64,000 nucleotides of DNA from a virus (IMGVR_UViG_2824233761_000002:7054-71053), one strand, 5' to 3'. Positions 9,529 to 41,769 are shown, counted from the stretch's first letter. Notes: generated by a model from the letters alone, not told the origin. A program made the numbers and translations.

Positions 9529-10092
9529 TCAGCGCGTCGCGTAGGCCAGCCCGAGCTTGCCCTCCACCGCTGTGCCACACGTCAGGTCCCGCCACAGCTG
9601 CTCCAGCGGGCCATGCAGCCTGTCCAACGGCTGGCGCTCGTCAAGCTCGACCACCCAGCGGTCGCCCTCGTCGAATCGCCTGAGCAGCCCGGCGTGACGT
9701 GCCCCCGGCGGCGGACACTGCCCCACGCAGGTGCACTCCGGCAGCGGGGCATCGGGGTTCTGGAAGCGCCACCCCAGCGAGACGCAGGACTCCTCGCGCG
9801 GGTCCAAGCACCACGGCATCACCGACCACCGCACGTCCACGTCACCCCGGTCCTCCAGCAGCCGCAGGTAGCGCTGCGTCTCGGCACACGCGGCCCGGAG
9901 CGCGTCCTCCCTGACCCCATAGTGTCCGTCGACGCCGGCCTGCACGTGCCGGTACGTCTGACCGCACCCGGCGCAACGCAAGGCGTCCCGATACAGCCAG
10001 ACGTACCCGCGCCCATGATCTCGCGCCTTCGCACTTCGGGCCGTCCCGCACGCCAGGCACATCGCCACCACCTCGACGATCTGCACGCTCAT
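9529..10092 (-). CDS. Hypothetical protein with N-terminal zinc ribbon
   Basis: CxxC...CxxC motifs; ATGA overlap with the upstream ORF. Confidence 0.55.
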   Translation of the reverse strand: MSVQIVEVVAMCLACGTARSAKARDHGRGYVWLYRDALRCAGCGQTYRHVQAGVDGHYGVREDALRAACAETQRYLRLLEDRGDVDVRWSVMPWCLDPREESCVSLGWRFQNPDAPLPECTCVGQCPPPGARHAGLLRRFDEGDRWVVELDERQPLDRLHGPLEQLWRDLTCGTAVEGKLGLAYATR

Positions 10093-10499
10093 GCCTGGGC
10101 CTCCAGACGCGCGATGACGCTAGGACGGCAGTTCGGGCAGACGTCAGCGGTGTCTGCCGCCGTCCGGATGCGAATCACTGCCCTCGGCTTCGGCCAGGCC
10201 CAGCGCCCGCAGAATGCGAGGTACTGCACCCCCATTTCACGGGCAACCGTGATACGTCCCACCGGCGCAGAGTGCAGCCAGGCGTCCGGCTCGACCATGT
10301 TGTCGGCGCCGGCAATATGGTCGGTGGTCTGCGGCTGCGCGGGCTTCCCCACCCGCGAGCCGCCCTGAGATGATTCGGTCACGATGTTGCCTCCTTGGAA
10401 GGCGATGTCGAGGCCCTCGGCTGGTGTTCCCGCACCACCGGGGGCCGCTCTTGCATGTTGACAAATCGAGACGCTACTACCGCCCTTGCAGTTTGACAA
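10089..10499 (-). CDS. Hypothetical Cys-containing protein (start uncertain, possibly 10298)
   Basis: ORF coupled to 9529-10092; FCG...CPNC motif. Confidence 0.4.
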   Translation of the reverse strand: MSNCKGGSSVSICQHARAAPGGAGTPAEGLDIAFQGGNIVTESSQGGSRVGKPAQPQTTDHIAGADNMVEPDAWLHSAPVGRITVAREMGVQYLAFCGRWAWPKPRAVIRIRTAADTADVCPNCRPSVIARLEAQA

Positions 10500-13495: not shown

Positions 13496-14995
13496 CTACC
13501 GCTCCCAGACGCCCTTCACCACAACGTCCGCGCGCGGCCGCCCCGTCCACACCCGCACCGGCCGGATCAAGTCACGCAGCACCTCCCGCCGGTGCTCCAC
13601 CGGCCGGTCATCCCACGACCCCAGCAGATCCTGCGCGATCCCCACCGGATCCGACGGCCCCCGCCGCGCCGACACCGCAGCGTCCTCATGCGCGGCCTGC
13701 AACTGATCCCGCTTCTCCACCAGGCCCGCCACCGTCTTGGCGTAGACCTCCGGCGGCAGCGGCGCCGACGCGTTCGACAGGGCCAGCTGCTGCAGCTCGG
13801 CATCGACGCGCGCGACAGCCCGGGCGAGTCGGTCCGCCTCCGACCTCGAGGCGGTGACGCGGGCCTCGGCAGCCAGGGCGACGTTGCGCCGCTCGTCGAC
13901 CTCGCCGGCGAGGTCGACGAGCCAGGCGTAGACCTTGTCCTCGACGTGCGACGCCATCACGTACCCGCCCTTGCACACGGCTGGGCCGATCTCCTTGCCG
14001 TTCTGGCACCGGTACTTGGGGACCCGATAGGCGCCGAACTGGCCGGCGACCATCGATCCTCCGCACCGACCGCAGCGGATCAACCCGGAGAGCAGGTACT
14101 GCGACCGGATCGTCCGGGCCGGCCTCGCAGCCCTGAGTCGCCGGGCGTCGAGGTATGCCTGCCACAGCTCTTGGTCGATGACGGGCTCGTGGACGCCAGG
14201 ATGCAGGGTCGGCTCGATCTTCCGGGCCCGGTCGCCGCCGGCGAGGAAGGACCCGGTCGCGAAGCCGGAGTCGAGGACGCGGCGCAGCGTACGGTCCGAC
14301 CACGGCCCGGGGTCCTTCTTCCCGTACCCACCGACGGTCAGGTGGCCATGAGCGTTGAGCCACCGCACCAGCTGGTAGACGGACTCGCCGGCGACGTAGC
14401 GGCGGTACATGTCCGCGAGGACGGGGGCGGTGACCGGATTAGGAACGTGGAGCTTCTTCTCGCGGTCGTAGACGTAGCCGAACCGATCTTTCCCGGTCGG
14501 CGGCCGGCCGGCGCGAACCCGTGAAGCGTGGACCTCCTTCCACACCTCCCCGATGCGCTCGGCCTCGAACGCCTGGAGCTCGGCGAGCATCCCGCGGGCG
14601 AGCCGGCCGCTCGAGGTGGTGGTGTCGAACTGCTCAGTGGCGGACTCGAGCCGGCCGCCGGCCTCTTCGACGCGGTCGATCGCGACGGCCCACCGGAGCC
14701 GGTGGCGTGCCGCGCGGGAGTACTTCCAGACGACGAGGACGTCGTACTCCCCCGCTTCGATGGCGGCGACGGCCTGGTCGAGGCGGGGCCACCAGGCGGA
14801 GCGGGCGCGGGATCCGGACTCGTCGATGCCTTCGAGCCAGCCGGCGATCTCGTAGCCGCGGGTGGCGGCATAGTCGATGATCGCGGTGCGCTGGACCTCC
14901 GGGGAGATCATCCCTTCACGTTCCTGGGAGACCCGCACGAGCCCGAGCGCCCTCGGTGGGGCTTCGGGGACGACGCGCAGCTGACGCCCGGTCAT
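13496..14995 (-). CDS. Large serine recombinase (integrase)
   Basis: LVRVSQ catalytic Ser; VWKYSRAAR; recombinase domain; LSGLIRCGRCG zinc ribbon; coiled coil. Confidence 0.95.
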   Translation of the reverse strand: MTGRQLRVVPEAPPRALGLVRVSQEREGMISPEVQRTAIIDYAATRGYEIAGWLEGIDESGSRARSAWWPRLDQAVAAIEAGEYDVLVVWKYSRAARHRLRWAVAIDRVEEAGGRLESATEQFDTTTSSGRLARGMLAELQAFEAERIGEVWKEVHASRVRAGRPPTGKDRFGYVYDREKKLHVPNPVTAPVLADMYRRYVAGESVYQLVRWLNAHGHLTVGGYGKKDPGPWSDRTLRRVLDSGFATGSFLAGGDRARKIEPTLHPGVHEPVIDQELWQAYLDARRLRAARPARTIRSQYLLSGLIRCGRCGGSMVAGQFGAYRVPKYRCQNGKEIGPAVCKGGYVMASHVEDKVYAWLVDLAGEVDERRNVALAAEARVTASRSEADRLARAVARVDAELQQLALSNASAPLPPEVYAKTVAGLVEKRDQLQAAHEDAAVSARRGPSDPVGIAQDLLGSWDDRPVEHRREVLRDLIRPVRVWTGRPRADVVVKGVWER

Positions 14996-15326: not shown

Positions 15327-15791
15327 CTAGATGGTGATGGTCGCGAGCTGCTCGTCGAGGTACGCCCGCTCGCGGGGCGTGAGGGAGCTGAGCCGGACGG
15401 CGAGCGTGTCGTCGTCGACCCAGAGCTCCCAGGCTGCCTTCTCGTGGTCGGCCTGATGCCAGGCCAGCGCGTGCCCGATCCACCGGATGCTCGGCGCCAG
15501 GAGCCGGCCGACCTTGCGGTCGATGATCAGCTCCTCCCTCATCCGCCGATCCGGAGCGCACGGGCCCCGAACGATGTGCTGGGTCTCGTGGGCGATGGTG
15601 CACCGGCGCTCGGCCTCGTCGAGGCCGTTTGCGAGATACACCCGCCGCTCGTCGAAGCTGGTCAGCCCCCACTGCCCGTCCGGAAGGTCGTCGGTCCAGA
15701 CCAGCCGCCAGTCGCGGTAGGTCCCGAAGACGCGCCACGGATGGTGCCGGTGGCGGCGGGGATCGCGGAAGACGTGGATGGGGTCGACCAT
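15327..15791 (-). CDS. ImmA/IrrE-family zinc metallopeptidase (putative antirepressor)
   Basis: RRCTIAHETQH (HExxH) and E...DRKVGRLL; located between integrase and repressor. Confidence 0.85.
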   Translation of the reverse strand: MVDPIHVFRDPRRHRHHPWRVFGTYRDWRLVWTDDLPDGQWGLTSFDERRVYLANGLDEAERRCTIAHETQHIVRGPCAPDRRMREELIIDRKVGRLLAPSIRWIGHALAWHQADHEKAAWELWVDDDTLAVRLSSLTPRERAYLDEQLATITI

Positions 15792-15799
15792 GACCCGGG

Positions 15800-15821
15800 A
15801 CCGTAGAGCCGACCGCCGACA
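15800..15821 (-). promoter_or_regulatory. PafBC-type (RecA-NDp) DNA-damage promoter of the ImmA-like gene
   Basis: Minus strand TGTCGG-cggtcggctc-TACGGT, 8 nt before the ATG at 15791; exact TGTCGG-N10-TANNNT. Confidence 0.75.
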
Positions 15822-31409: not shown

Positions 31410-31938
31410 ATGAAGGCGTTGACGGTGCAGCAGCCGTGGGCGTGGGCGATCGTGCACGGCGGGAAGGACGTCGAGAACCGGACTCAAGCGTGGTCGTATC
31501 GGGGCCTGCTCGCCATCCACGCCGGTGCGCGCTGGTCCGATCGAGGCGGACGCTCAGGGCTCGTGTGGGACGCGCTGCGGGACCCGCTACGGCTGGCCGA
31601 CCGGGGCGGTCACTGCGCGTGACGACCGGCGGCCCGGGTTCGACGTGATCCGCCCACTTGGCGCGATCATCGGCGTGGTCGACTTGGTCGGCGTGCACGC
31701 AGCGCAGTCGGTCGCCCGCTGGCCTGAACAGCCCGCCTGCTGTGACTCGCGGTGGGCCGAGACGTCGTACGCCGAGCACGGCGGCCGCACCCGCCGCGAC
31801 GTCGTGCACCTGGTGCTGGAGAACCCGCGGCCGCTCCCCGAGCCGATCCCGTGCAAGGGCCGGCTCGGGCTGTGGACGCCGCCGGCCGATGTGCTGGCGC
31901 AGCTGCTCGCTGACGCCGGATGGGAGCGCACCGAATGA
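31410..31938 (+). pseudogene. ASCH-domain protein, frameshifted
   Basis: MKALTVQQPWAWAIVHGGKDVENR...AIHAG stops at 31622; PLGAIIGVVDL...LENPRPLPEPIPCKGRLGLW continues in another frame to 31938. Confidence 0.7.
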
Positions 31939-32120
31939 GCGGCACCGCCGACCCGCACGAGCCTCCCCCGCTGCCCGCTTTCCAGTGGCGGGTGACCCGC
32001 ACACCGTCGGTCGTCAGGTCGGGTGGGCCGGAACGGATCTACGACCAGGCGGCCGCGGATCCCGCCTACGAGACGCCGCGGGTCCGGGGGTTCTCGGTCG
32101 CCGACGTCGACCCAAGCATG
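31935..32120 (+). pseudogene. Small early gene apparently interrupted by the antisense cassette
   Basis: Coupled ATG at 31935; phage-like codons until ~32120, then reads antisense through the cassette to 32831. Confidence 0.35.
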
Positions 32121-32127
32121 ACCCTGC

Positions 32128-32292
32128 TTAGACGAGGTGTCCTCTGCCCTCGATGTGCCCCGAGCACTTTGGGTTGGTGCACACACGCTGCTCACCGAAC
32201 GACTGCTCACGCTCAGCCATCTTCCGTGGCCGGGCGACCTGGTCGATCCGCACGGGTTTGCCGCAGAGCCCGCACGGCCTGTCGTCGCTCAT
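32128..32292 (-). CDS. 54-aa zinc-ribbon protein
   Basis: MSDDRPCGLCG...CTNPKC; ATGA coupling to the upstream bactofilin-like gene. Confidence 0.6.
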   Translation of the reverse strand: MSDDRPCGLCGKPVRIDQVARPRKMAEREQSFGEQRVCTNPKCSGHIEGRGHLV

Positions 32293-32783
32293 CGCTGACC
32301 GGCTTCGATGTCGGCCTGCATCTGAGCCTGGGGGACGAATCTCCGTTGCTCGGAAACCCAGATGCACAGCCTGTTGCTGTCGACCGTCAGGTCTCCGCCA
32401 CGTACGAACGACTCAAGGGATCCGTCCTCGTGCACGACCTTGGAGTGCTCAACCAGCGAGCCGACCGCAACGGCAAAGGTTCCCATGTCGTCCAACTGGG
32501 AGAACGCGACCCCGGTTACGCCCGCCACCATGATGACGCCGTCGTTGGAGACGTCTCCAGGCTCGAAGGCCCCGTTGACGCTGAGCACGGCGTCATCCTC
32601 GACGACCAGGCGCCCTGCGAACGCGCCGTTCACGGTGAGGGCTGCTCCGCCGTGGATCGTCGCACCGCGCACACCGCCGTTGACCGTGACCGATCTGGTG
32701 ACGTCCAGATTCTCGAACTCGCCGTAGAGATCGCCAGCGCTCATCTCGCCGCCCTTCCTCCTCGTGCGACCCGACTGCCGCAT
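32289..32783 (-). CDS. Bactofilin-like / beta-solenoid protein (alternative start 32744)
   Basis: Repeats VTVNGGV, LTVNGAF, LSVNGAF, VSNDGVI; leaderless ATG 7 nt after the -10 box. Confidence 0.6.
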   Translation of the reverse strand: MRQSGRTRRKGGEMSAGDLYGEFENLDVTRSVTVNGGVRGATIHGGAALTVNGAFAGRLVVEDDAVLSVNGAFEPGDVSNDGVIMVAGVTGVAFSQLDDMGTFAVAVGSLVEHSKVVHEDGSLESFVRGGDLTVDSNRLCIWVSEQRRFVPQAQMQADIEAGQR

Positions 32784-32790
32784 CCACCCG

Positions 32791-32812
32791 ACCGTAGCCA
32801 CGCTCGCCGACA
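32791..32812 (-). promoter_or_regulatory. PafBC-type (RecA-NDp) DNA-damage promoter
   Basis: Minus strand TGTCGG-cgagcgtggc-TACGGT, 7 nt before the ATG at 32783. Confidence 0.75.
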
Positions 32813-32827
32813 GCCGCAGGAGAACCG

Positions 32828-33070
32828 ATGACCCTGCCCGCCACCTGCCGGCACGCCGACACCGTCCCGGTCGAGGTCCGTGACTCGCTCGACGCCGGCA
32901 CCGTGCCCACCACCGTGCCCACCACCGTGGTCGCGCACATCTGCCGTGGCTGCCACGAGACCCTCCCCGCGGCGTGGGGCTGCACGGACTGCTCGTGGGT
33001 CGAGGAACGCGCGATGTGCGAACCGGTGCCGCGGCTGCTGCTCGCCCACCCCTGCCAGGAGCACGCATGA
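32828..33070 (+). CDS. Zinc-binding hypothetical protein
   Basis: RBS AGGAG; CRH, CRGCH and CTDC motifs. Confidence 0.55.
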   Translation: MTLPATCRHADTVPVEVRDSLDAGTVPTTVPTTVVAHICRGCHETLPAAWGCTDCSWVEERAMCEPVPRLLLAHPCQEHA

Positions 33071-33291
33071 CCGAGATGTCCGACGAGCTCCGCGCCGCCG
33101 TGCAGGCCGCGCTGCGGCGGCAGGCCGACGACCTCGTCCGCCGAGCGTACGCAGCAGCACCGATCCGGCCCATGCCCGGCTGCGTCCTCCCCGAGCCGGA
33201 CGCCGACGGCGTGTACCGCATCACCAACCTGCCGCACCACCCACGCAAGCCCGAGACCGGCACCAGCTCGACCTTGGAGGGACCCGCGTGA
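33067..33291 (+). CDS. Hypothetical protein
   Basis: ATGA coupling. Confidence 0.5.
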   Translation: MTEMSDELRAAVQAALRRQADDLVRRAYAAAPIRPMPGCVLPEPDADGVYRITNLPHHPRKPETGTSSTLEGPA

Positions 33292-34856
33292 CCACCCGCC
33301 ACACCCCGGCAACCAGCACCGGCGACCGGACGACCCCGGCCTGCCACTACGACCGCGAGACGAAGACCCGCGTCATCCGCGTCCGCCGCCCCGACGACCA
33401 GGGCGCCGACCCCGACGAACTCATCCCCTGCGAACAGCCGCACTGCGTCATCTGCCAGCGCGAACACACCACCCACGCCCAACCCCTCACCTGCCCCACC
33501 TGCATCGGCGAGGTCAGGCGCGACCTCGAGGACATCCGCTGGCTCGCCCGCCACCTCCGCTGGCAGGCCGCACGCGGCGACGGGCTCGCGGTCCCCTCCG
33601 CTCGGATCCCCGGCGGCGACGCCATGGTCGTCATGGCCCGCGCCGGCGCCGACGGGCCCGACCTCATCTGGTCCCCCGACCTCAACGAGACCCACCGCCC
33701 CGACGACGTGGTCCCCCTGCTGCTCCCACTGGTCAGCTGGGAGCACCAGTGGCGCGCCCACTTCGGCCACACCGCCAGGTCCACGGACCGGGCGCCGGTC
33801 ACCGCGATCACCCACTACCTCGCCGACCACCTCAACGACATGGCCCAAGCCGGCGCCCACGGCACCGCGGCGGGCCCGGACTGGCCCGGGTTCGCCGCCG
33901 ACATCACCGCGCTGCGCCGCCAGCTCGAGGCGATCCTCCACGACGAGCACGAGCCCGACCGCGGCGTGCCGTGCTTCGAGTGCGACCGCCCCCTGGTCCG
34001 CCGCTTCGGCGACCCGCGGCCGTGCCGCCACACCACGCCCGCCCGGGCGCACCTGGTCGCAGTGGAGGCCCGGGCCGCGGCCGGCCGCGCCATCCTCGCG
34101 GCGATCGCGTCGTACCCCGAGCTCCGCGGCCGCGACTATCCCCACGGCTGGACCCCTCACGAGCTCGCCGCCGCTCGGCCGCCGTCCACCGCGGAGATCT
34201 CCGCGGCCCGCCGGCCGTGCGACGCCTGCGCTGGCCGCGGCCAGGGCGGCATCGAGGACCCCAGCGTGGGCCAGTCCTGGGAGTGCCTGGGGTGCCGGCG
34301 CCGGTACACGCCCGGCGAGTACGCCCACGCGGTACGCCGCCACCTCCTCACCTCGGGCCCGAACGGCGACGGGTGGACCCACATCACGATGGCCGCGGAG
34401 GCGGCGTCGACGCAGACCGGTGCGGTGATCGCGCCGGGCACGGTGCGGAAGTGGATGGACACCGGGAAGGTCCGGGCGTGCTGTCGCTGGTCGTCCACGG
34501 TGGACGGGAAGAGCACTGGGCGGGTGCCGGCGTACGACGAGCCCGCCGGCCGTGGCCATGCCGCGGTCGTGCGGGCGTTCGCCGGGCGGGTGCAGTCGGT
34601 CCGTGGTCTTGCGCTGGTCTACTGGCCCGACGTGGCCGACCGTGCAGCGGATCTCGTCGTACGGCAGGCCGAGGTCGAGCGGGCCCGGCGTGAGCGGGCG
34701 GAGCAGGCGCGGCGGTTCTACGCAGCGCTGGCCGCGAAGGGCATCACCAAGACCAAGCCGGCGCTCGCGCTGGGGAAGAGCATGGGCATCCACCCGAACC
34801 GCGTGCGAGCATTCCTCGACGAGCTCGACGCGGCCCGCGAGAAGGAGACGGCATGA
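33288..34856 (+). CDS. Putative late-gene transcriptional regulator (multi Zn-ribbon plus HTH)
   Basis: CVIC, CPTC, CFEC, CDAC and CLGC motifs; APGTVRKWMDTGKV HTH; last large gene before the packaging module. Confidence 0.6.
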   Translation: MTTRHTPATSTGDRTTPACHYDRETKTRVIRVRRPDDQGADPDELIPCEQPHCVICQREHTTHAQPLTCPTCIGEVRRDLEDIRWLARHLRWQAARGDGLAVPSARIPGGDAMVVMARAGADGPDLIWSPDLNETHRPDDVVPLLLPLVSWEHQWRAHFGHTARSTDRAPVTAITHYLADHLNDMAQAGAHGTAAGPDWPGFAADITALRRQLEAILHDEHEPDRGVPCFECDRPLVRRFGDPRPCRHTTPARAHLVAVEARAAAGRAILAAIASYPELRGRDYPHGWTPHELAAARPPSTAEISAARRPCDACAGRGQGGIEDPSVGQSWECLGCRRRYTPGEYAHAVRRHLLTSGPNGDGWTHITMAAEAASTQTGAVIAPGTVRKWMDTGKVRACCRWSSTVDGKSTGRVPAYDEPAGRGHAAVVRAFAGRVQSVRGLALVYWPDVADRAADLVVRQAEVERARRERAEQARRFYAALAAKGITKTKPALALGKSMGIHPNRVRAFLDELDAAREKETA

Positions 34857-41550: not shown

Positions 41551-41724
41551 CTAGAGCGGCGGCCGGCGGGGGTCGTCGCCGGCTGACGGCATGTAGGCCG
41601 TCGCGTCGCACCACTCACACTTCTCGACCATCGCGAGCCCGCCACGCCCGCCGGGCGCGAGCTCGGCGAGCACGAAGTTGTGCGCGCCCGTCGGCGACGT
41701 GCACTCGCCGTCGTCGTATCCCAC
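41551..41724 (-). CDS. Small antisense zinc-binding protein
   Basis: TAGCGT 7 nt before GTG (leaderless); C..H..CEWC motif. Confidence 0.4.
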   Translation of the reverse strand: MGYDDGECTSPTGAHNFVLAELAPGGRGGLAMVEKCEWCDATAYMPSAGDDPRRPPL

Positions 41725-41769
41725 CCGCCGCACGCTACCCGCCATGCCCTCGACAAGGGAGGTCCCGTC

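Follow-up and report, generated by a model that had tools for sequence, protein, structure and literature searches.

We analyzed a 64,000-nucleotide (nt) stretch of viral DNA (IMGVR_UViG_2824233761_000002:7054-71053; hereafter, the window), which is high-GC Nocardioides prophage DNA, and focus here on two minus-strand genes, g1 and g2, located within its plus-strand early operon. The anatomy of the locus identifies the pair, with high confidence, as an inserted, compositionally distinct, antisense two-gene cassette. In general type it is a known form of moron, but its wiring is unusual and conserved, and it brings in a new protein family. The first gene of the cassette encodes a small acidic protein for which a right-handed beta-helix is predicted, and the pair is preceded by a promoter that appears to belong to the class read by PafBC, the DNA-damage activator of the host. 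Taken together, we favor the reading that the cassette is a moron-type insertion delivering a PafBC-triggered, non-enzymatic binding protein for phage-host conflict, to which we give a probability of about 0.5. The elements of the cassette and of its insertion site, in positions of the window, are as follows.

32112-32836, no strand assigned: segment without counterpart in the syntenic phage contig L049, that is, the inserted cassette (about 725 nt in place of 256 nt, blastn)
32289-32744 (coding 32292-32744), minus strand: g1, 151 amino acids (aa), acidic, isoelectric point (pI) 4.4, net charge -12, predicted right-handed beta-helix
32128-32292 (coding from 32131), minus strand: g2, 54 aa, basic, pI 8.9, with CxxC...CxxxC spacing
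32791-32812, minus strand: RecA-NDp/PafBC-type promoter, with TGTCGG at 32812-32807, a 10-nt spacer and the -10 element TACGGT at 32796-32791
32745-32783, minus strand: possible 13-codon N-terminal extension of g1, from an in-frame ATG at 32783, 7 nt past the -10 element
32753-32763, minus strand: Shine-Dalgarno-like GAGGAGGAAGG, 8 nt upstream of the ATG at 32744
31935-32117, plus strand: 5' remnant of an early gene, 61 codons, now truncated
32118-32127, plus strand: left copy of a direct repeat (10 bp, perfect), ATGACCCTGC, immediately next to the stop codon of g2
32828-32837, plus strand: right copy of ATGACCCTGC, with which the intact plus-strand gene of 80 aa begins

The two frames are joined by an ATGA overlap at 32289-32292, in which the stop codon of g1 (TGA) meets the ATG of g2, and they are translationally coupled. 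G+C contents at the three codon positions are coding-like on the minus strand for both g1 (0.69/0.43/0.81) and g2 (0.65/0.50/0.83), whereas the antisense plus-strand frame across the cassette (0.78/0.55/0.63) is not coding-like. Overall, the G+C content of the cassette is 0.64-0.68 against 0.72-0.75 in the flanks, and at third codon positions (GC3) it is 0.81-0.83 against 0.87-0.95 in the neighboring genes. A two-gene minus-strand unit of lower G+C usage had been proposed in a first-pass annotation made from the sequence, together with a break in the gene starting at 31935, and all three points are borne out. The plus-strand open reading frame (ORF) starting at 31935 (299 codons) remains open up to 32831, crossing the cassette in the antisense direction, but its GC3 is 0.88 only until about 32130 and its composition is non-coding beyond that point. 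No terminator-like site was found 3' of g2, where the downstream RNA folds no better than shuffled sequence (z 0.72).

The insertion becomes evident from comparison with L049, a syntenic IMG/VR phage contig that lacks the cassette and in which all compared genes lie on one strand. There, a gene ending in ...DAGWERTA is followed by a gene of about 125-141 aa containing PRIQGFSVADVDGTRLRR... and then by homologs of the 80-, 74- and 522-aa genes of the window. By blastn, window positions 32074-32111 correspond to L049 3715-3752 with 94.7% identity and positions 32837-33400 to L049 4009-4594 with 70% identity. In the window, the ORF at 31935 has ...PRVRGFSVADVDPS, after which it passes into sequence antisense to the cassette, while its L049 ortholog, which shares PR.xGFSVADVD with the remnant, extends for about 77 more codons and is then directly followed by the homolog of the 80-aa gene. 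The insertion thus truncated the plus-strand gene starting at 31935 and replaced its 3' part. No credible relatives of the 65-aa remnant were found in 300 Nocardioidaceae genomes. The 80-aa gene itself is intact, since its relatives are 73-78 aa long and have the identical start.

We also considered that the insert had split a single 141-codon gene, given that excision with one repeat copy restores a continuous 141-codon frame. This was set aside because the 80-aa gene represents a complete 73-78-aa family with the same start and the true partner of the remnant is present in L049; tblastn matches spanning the junction in loci L034 and L036 were judged to be chance alignments of high-GC DNA. 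Two further peculiarities of the site were observed. The 38-nt patch at 32074-32111, with its 94.7% identity to L049 3715-3752, is embedded in homologous DNA of 70-79% identity and ends just before the insertion point. In the 80-aa Cys-rich gene, a perfect 12-nt tandem duplication (CACCGTGCCCAC twice, 32899-32922 (+)) encodes TVPT-TVPT and is absent from the relatives.

The same slot carries other cargo in a related prophage of the same genus (G248). In this genome, the position of the cassette is occupied by a different minus-strand gene (L030, G248:C1, 6374-6835), which encodes a membrane-like protein of 153 aa, has coding-like G+C and shares with the window the CCTGCGGCT...TACGGTCG flanks and the -10 element upstream, but lacks TGTCGG. 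An identity of this gene as SLATT was not retained, as the NCBIfam SLATT_1 match (E 0.023) falls below the cut-off, and no conclusion was drawn from it. Elsewhere in the G248 early operon, TGTCGGTG-N8-TATGGT is found 8 nt before the GTG/ATG of a minus-strand gene for a membrane protein of about 131 aa (L030, G248:C1, 4435-4857). Given that G248 holds other minus-strand genes, one in the slot of the cassette and one with a PafBC-type element, antisense cargo is recurrent in this phage group, and part of it has such an element upstream.

The promoter of the cassette, TGTCGG-N10-TACGGT, is one of two perfect copies in the window, as had been noted on first reading, and the other is found at 15800-15821 (-), in front of an ImmA-like gene; the two matches compare with 0.03 expected, and none of 100 shuffles contained two. 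Genome-wide, the strict 12-base motif occurs four times versus 0.5 expected, with half of the copies inside the prophage of the window. The element fits the RecA-NDp/PafBC consensus TGTCRG(TG)-N8-TAnnnT, with correct spacing and upstream of a gene. In the host, recA is preceded by TGTCGGTG-N8-TAGCGT, which has identical spacing, alongside a LexA-box-like TCGAAC-N4-GTTCG, and two adjacent same-strand WYL-domain genes (C3:819.7-820.9 kb) are PafBC-like; this tandem arrangement is the one expected for pafB-pafC, and their presumed orthology to PafBC is based on it. When five such promoters are aligned, the only invariant bases are TGTCGG.G and TA..GTC. The proposed assignment of the cassette promoter to the RecA-NDp/PafBC class of the host, as seen at recA, is supported by the motif, its spacing and the host genes. 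In published accounts (bioRxiv 10.1101/612655; PMC7617703), the regulator and its motif are treated for host genes only, unlike the cassette element, which sits on phage cargo genes, and full-text literature searches on PafBC and RecA-NDp in phages and prophages brought up no account of phage genes with promoters of the PafBC type.

Outside the prophage, the third strict copy precedes a host gene for a 193-aa pentapeptide-repeat (MfpA-like) protein (G000:C2:611977-612584 (+), Pfam 2e-16), with its ATG 6 nt past the -10 element. This suggests that the DNA-damage regulon of the host may include a beta-helical protein of the DNA-mimic class. The fourth copy is located on a 14-kb contig (G000:C15:2354-2609 (+)), before a gene for a very basic, Cys-rich protein of 75 aa, for which no family match was found. 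A related element with a spacer one base short, TGTCGG-N9-TATGGT, is present in the window at 10301-10321 (+), near the boundary of prophage 1 and the Tad operon.

All four strict motifs of the genome are followed by an ATG 6-8 nt downstream of the -10 element, and in the other three cases this ATG is the gene start. For g1, a start at 32783, corresponding to the leaderless ATG suggested in the first-pass annotation, would yield a 164-aa product from a leaderless mRNA, with 13 added basic residues. However, this extension is not conserved: the homologs begin at the position of the downstream ATG at 32744, which has GAGGAGGAAGG ahead of it, just as GGAGGAG precedes the ATG of the closely studied homolog in locus L019 (see below). 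We therefore regard the leaderless start as no more than plausible, and translation may begin at both positions.

The link between promoter and g1 recurs in L019 (CAZAQV010000041.1), a 30-kb contig of 71% GC filed under a Polyangiales metagenome-assembled genome. The contig carries a PrimPol-D5-PolA fusion and an SNF2 helicase, with actinophages as the best phage matches. Its g1 homolog, 151 aa long and 42% identical, is found between PolA and the next gene, alone on the plus strand, while every large gene of the contig is on the minus strand; hence, a check of gene neighborhood, as had been called for, again placed a lone antisense gene with the same motif in a replication operon. There, TGTCGG-N10-TACGGT ends 32 nt upstream of the homolog ATG (one match in 16.4 kb, and none in 200 shuffles). 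The upstream regions of window and L019 show no resemblance outside the specified motif bases, which indicates that the element itself is conserved and not the surrounding DNA. No g2-like gene follows the homolog in L019. Considering the actinophage-like PrimPol-PolA and SNF2 genes, the 71% GC and the actinobacterial PafBC-type promoter, L019 is probably mis-binned phage DNA, and the promoter-g1 link appears from these two sequences to be conserved across two unrelated phage backgrounds.

The g1 protein belongs to a family with a sporadic distribution. An HMMER scan of 1.84 billion representative proteins retrieved 76 clusters of homologs at E<=1e-3, 17 of them at E<=1e-10, nearly all of 135-160 aa and aligning end to end. 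Among Nocardioidaceae, family members were found in 12 of 401 genomes (about five strong matches), and none at E<=1e-6 in 400 other Actinomycetota genomes. A word-index protein search with g1 returned only the query itself. The family alignment contains invariant turn glycines and a conserved C-terminal DGS...RF motif, but no conserved His/Cys/Ser/Asp set that would hint at catalysis. Since no catalytic signature is present, g1 most likely acts by binding. Acidity is a property of the whole family (median pI 4.66, median net charge -10).

Repeating beta-strand units had been recognized from the sequence, and this reading holds, with about four units of 17-18 aa each. Using the family alignment, AlphaFold2 predicts a right-handed beta-helix with a predicted local distance difference test score (pLDDT) of 96.3 and a predicted template modeling score of 0.88. 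In this model, residues 6-149 are ordered, strands extend over residues 6-138 (throughout 6-77), and the C-terminal 50 residues form strands and a terminal helix at pLDDT >=94, with neither disordered tails nor a membrane-targeting N-terminus. Foldseek of g1 against PDB and BFVD gave no match at E<=0.001. An exhaustive VIA fold search, in which all values for g1 lie in the range described for the tool as common for shared architecture, placed right-handed beta-helices at the top and ranked TibA (Z 7.8), an antifreeze protein (7.4), an adhesin (7.2) and Ag43 (6.4) above the C-terminal domains of CAP (5.7), BacA (PDB 2N3D; 5.2, root mean square deviation 3.2 Å over 88 residues) and the C-terminal domain of MinC (5.2).

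Whether this solenoid, called bactofilin-like in the first-pass annotation, is a bactofilin bears on function. The bactofilins (PF04519/DUF583; e.g., BacA of Caulobacter) and g1 share a right-handed beta-helix with windings of about 17-18 residues and glycine turns. A remote relationship is suggested by hhalign, in which columns 10-93 of the g1 family align with the bactofilin-domain region of the bridging protein P0054 (probability 97.1%, E 5.6e-11), itself passing Pfam Bactofilin at 38.9 bits. In addition, when 50 family members were scanned, five matched Bactofilin (E<0.01) and two weakly matched MinC_C. It is therefore conceivable that g1 is a bactofilin- or MinC-type polymer or division factor that halts division or reshapes the cell during induction, the more so as division inhibitors (SulA, SidA, DidA, YneA) are common in DNA-damage regulons (PMC7617703). 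Yet g1 itself reaches only 12.4 bits against the PF04519 cut-off of 27.9 (E 0.19), a scan of the whole genome with PF04519 at E 0.01 retrieved nothing, g1 included, and the family profile, when run against solved structures, found no bactofilin at E<=10 and T. maritima MinC at E 1.1. MinC_C (PF03775) gave no match to g1 in the Pfam scan, and autotransporter and antifreeze beta-helices exceed BacA in the fold search. Moreover, the regular part of the model comprises about four windings, after which the chain continues into an ordered C-terminal region that closes with a helix, whereas about six windings are described for bactofilins. These actinobacteria are generally not known to possess Min systems. 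We thus regard a polymer or division role as unlikely. Because g1 scores below the Pfam threshold, has fewer regular windings and carries an ordered C-terminal region instead of disordered tails, it is best viewed, on profile and model evidence, as a new unnamed family, mobile-element-encoded and sporadic, whose solenoid appears remotely related to the bactofilins without the family being part of theirs.

The remaining explanations concern the second gene, the RNA and the promoter. A toxin-antitoxin or two-component abortive-infection pairing of g1 with g2 would agree with their translational coupling, their opposite charge, a prophage moron position with its own promoter and the occurrence of some g1 homologs in defense islands. 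This idea, which had been raised at the outset, is very improbable because g1 stands alone in four other loci (L015, L016, L017 and L019) and g2 has no relatives; furthermore, neither protein matches PADLOC or Pfam toxin/antitoxin families or bears a catalytic signature. For g2, neither a word-index search nor the homolog loci and the host genome yielded a relative. Its GC3, which is coding-like, and its coupling to g1 make it probable that g2 is a genuine small protein restricted to this lineage, and it may be seen as a locus-specific add-on. Its cysteines (C7xxC10 and C38xxxC42) make the label of zinc ribbon plausible as far as spacing goes, although its Pfam matches are sub-threshold (DUF7569, 17.1 bits vs 27) and the single-sequence AlphaFold2 model is weak (pLDDT 66.5), with strands 13-17 and 35-38 beside both Cys pairs.

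In another scenario, the antisense RNA would be the main product, acting on the ASCH gene and the early genes by transcriptional interference or pairing, with the proteins being secondary. The lack of a terminator-like site after g2 and the antisense orientation also seen in L019 and G248 speak for it, but the g1 frame has coding composition and its product belongs to a conserved family with a confidently predicted fold, the variation of cargo among loci with orientation kept is what any insulated moron would show, and of the plus-strand genes downstream of g2, the first has already lost its 3' part and the ASCH gene seems to carry a frameshift, so that we consider this scenario distinctly unlikely. 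An equally low likelihood is given to a fortuitous or ordinary constitutive promoter, which would make the cassette a lysogen-expressed moron unrelated to DNA damage. Such a view draws on the G248 slot gene, which keeps the -10 element and the bases around it but is missing TGTCGG, and on the fact that DNA-damage regulation of the cassette is deduced from the motif; it is opposed by the perfect match of 12 bases twice in the prophage (0.03 expected) and again upstream of the L019 homolog (0.00 expected), as well as by the same element at host recA.

Returning to the favored reading, PafBC would sense single-stranded DNA (ssDNA), arising from DNA damage, at the onset of induction or from the replication of an infecting phage, and would switch on g1 and g2, their promoter firing together with that of the ImmA-like gene. 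Expression of the two proteins would not depend on the phage early promoter, with which the cassette promoter is convergent, and would begin as soon as induction sets in or when a lysogen comes under infection stress. As no terminator was found after g2, the cassette RNA would be expected to run on, in antisense, into the ASCH gene and the gene truncated by the insertion. The g1 protein would then bind a host or phage macromolecule and act in defense, in anti-defense or as a block on a host process, and not as a cytoskeletal polymer. The setting of its homologs on mobile elements and in defense islands points to a role in conflict (defense, exclusion or anti-defense), the main alternative being interference with a host process, division for instance. 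As an example, in L016 (G391:C50, 6125-10054 (+)), some 150 nt separate a distant homolog (9638-10054) from the complete Lamassu LmuA/LmuC/LmuB operon that precedes it on the same strand, and the surrounding island includes DarG-like, PDC-S27 and NERD genes and IS21. Another distant homolog is part of the low-GC cargo of a conjugative element (type IV coupling protein, TrwC relaxase, IS110), beside an FRG/PDC-S15 gene and an XRE regulator.

Several observations weigh against this reading. The dependence on PafBC is read solely from the motif, and the promoter-g1 link is present in two loci, the closest homologs (P0002-P0010, mostly from Logan assemblies) being outside the loci compared. At the homologs in L015, L016 and L017, neither the motif nor a Cys-rich partner is found. 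The distant homologs, in the Lamassu, conjugative and rml settings, are only about 30-35% identical, so the connection with islands is one of guilt by association, and the last of these has rml cell-wall sugar genes on both sides. Acidic proteins are common in the cytoplasm of actinobacteria. Finally, the database searches gave no match: PHROGs, PADLOC and NCBIfam contain no match for g1 or g2, tblastn against INPHARED phages gave nothing for P0001 or P0007, and no g1 relatives were recovered from PLSDB plasmids, IMG/VR pattern scans or a JGI metagenome scan.

With regard to the remainder of the prophage, a gene map drawn from codon-position G+C, which is a crude guide, places the cassette as follows.

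13496-14995, minus strand: integrase
15327-15791, minus strand: ImmA-like gene, with a repressor-like gene also on the minus strand
about 16.5 kb to 60.6 kb, plus strand: early, replication and structural gene block

Within the plus-strand block, the g1/g2 pair and a small gene at 41551-41733 are the sole well-supported minus-strand genes. The ASCH-domain gene upstream of the insertion (31410-31938 (+)) is split over two frames, 31410-31622 and 31645-31938, and its ortholog in the same-genus prophage (L030, 5237-5833) is a single 198-aa ORF; the split reflects either a frameshift or a sequencing error.

Phage morons are independently transcribed accessory genes between phage genes, and in mycobacteriophages they include reverse-oriented, lysogenically expressed defense genes. 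The cassette resembles them in having its own promoter, a G+C content unlike that of the flanks, no counterpart in the syntenic L049 and a slot filled by other cargo in G248. It differs in that its promoter would be of the class of a host DNA-damage activator and not constitutive, in that no terminator was found and in that part of a resident gene was removed. The protein can also be compared with the pentapeptide-repeat DNA mimics MfpA and Qnr, which are likewise small, acidic, right-handed beta-helices, and the same strict promoter precedes the pentapeptide gene of the host. However, g1 has no pentapeptide repeats and no such match in the Pfam scan, and it differs in cross-section and in the length of its repeats; that g1 mimics DNA is purely conjectural. 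An extended proposal, in which g1 would be a nucleic-acid-mimicking or SMC-binding inhibitor (with, e.g., Lamassu-type, nuclease or topoisomerase targets) among PafBC-triggered antisense cargo, is rated as doubtful. If true, actinobacterial phages would use the PafBC ssDNA sensor of the host to trigger a dedicated class of antisense cargo genes, g1 would be made at the first sign of ssDNA and would protect the replicating phage genome, and it would correspond in function to the MfpA-like beta-helices, among them the host protein whose gene has the same promoter.

How actinobacterial prophages read the DNA damage of their host is poorly known. Here, a single prophage has two perfect promoters of the host PafBC type, one at a putative anti-repressor protease and one at the cassette, for which L049 is a natural empty-site comparator. 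The analysis also defines an uncharacterized family of acidic, mobile proteins of about 150 aa that appear related to the bactofilin solenoid. As the promoter/beta-helix pairing is found again in a phage-like contig of unrelated origin, phages may have a way of timing the expression of accessory genes that does not depend on LexA.

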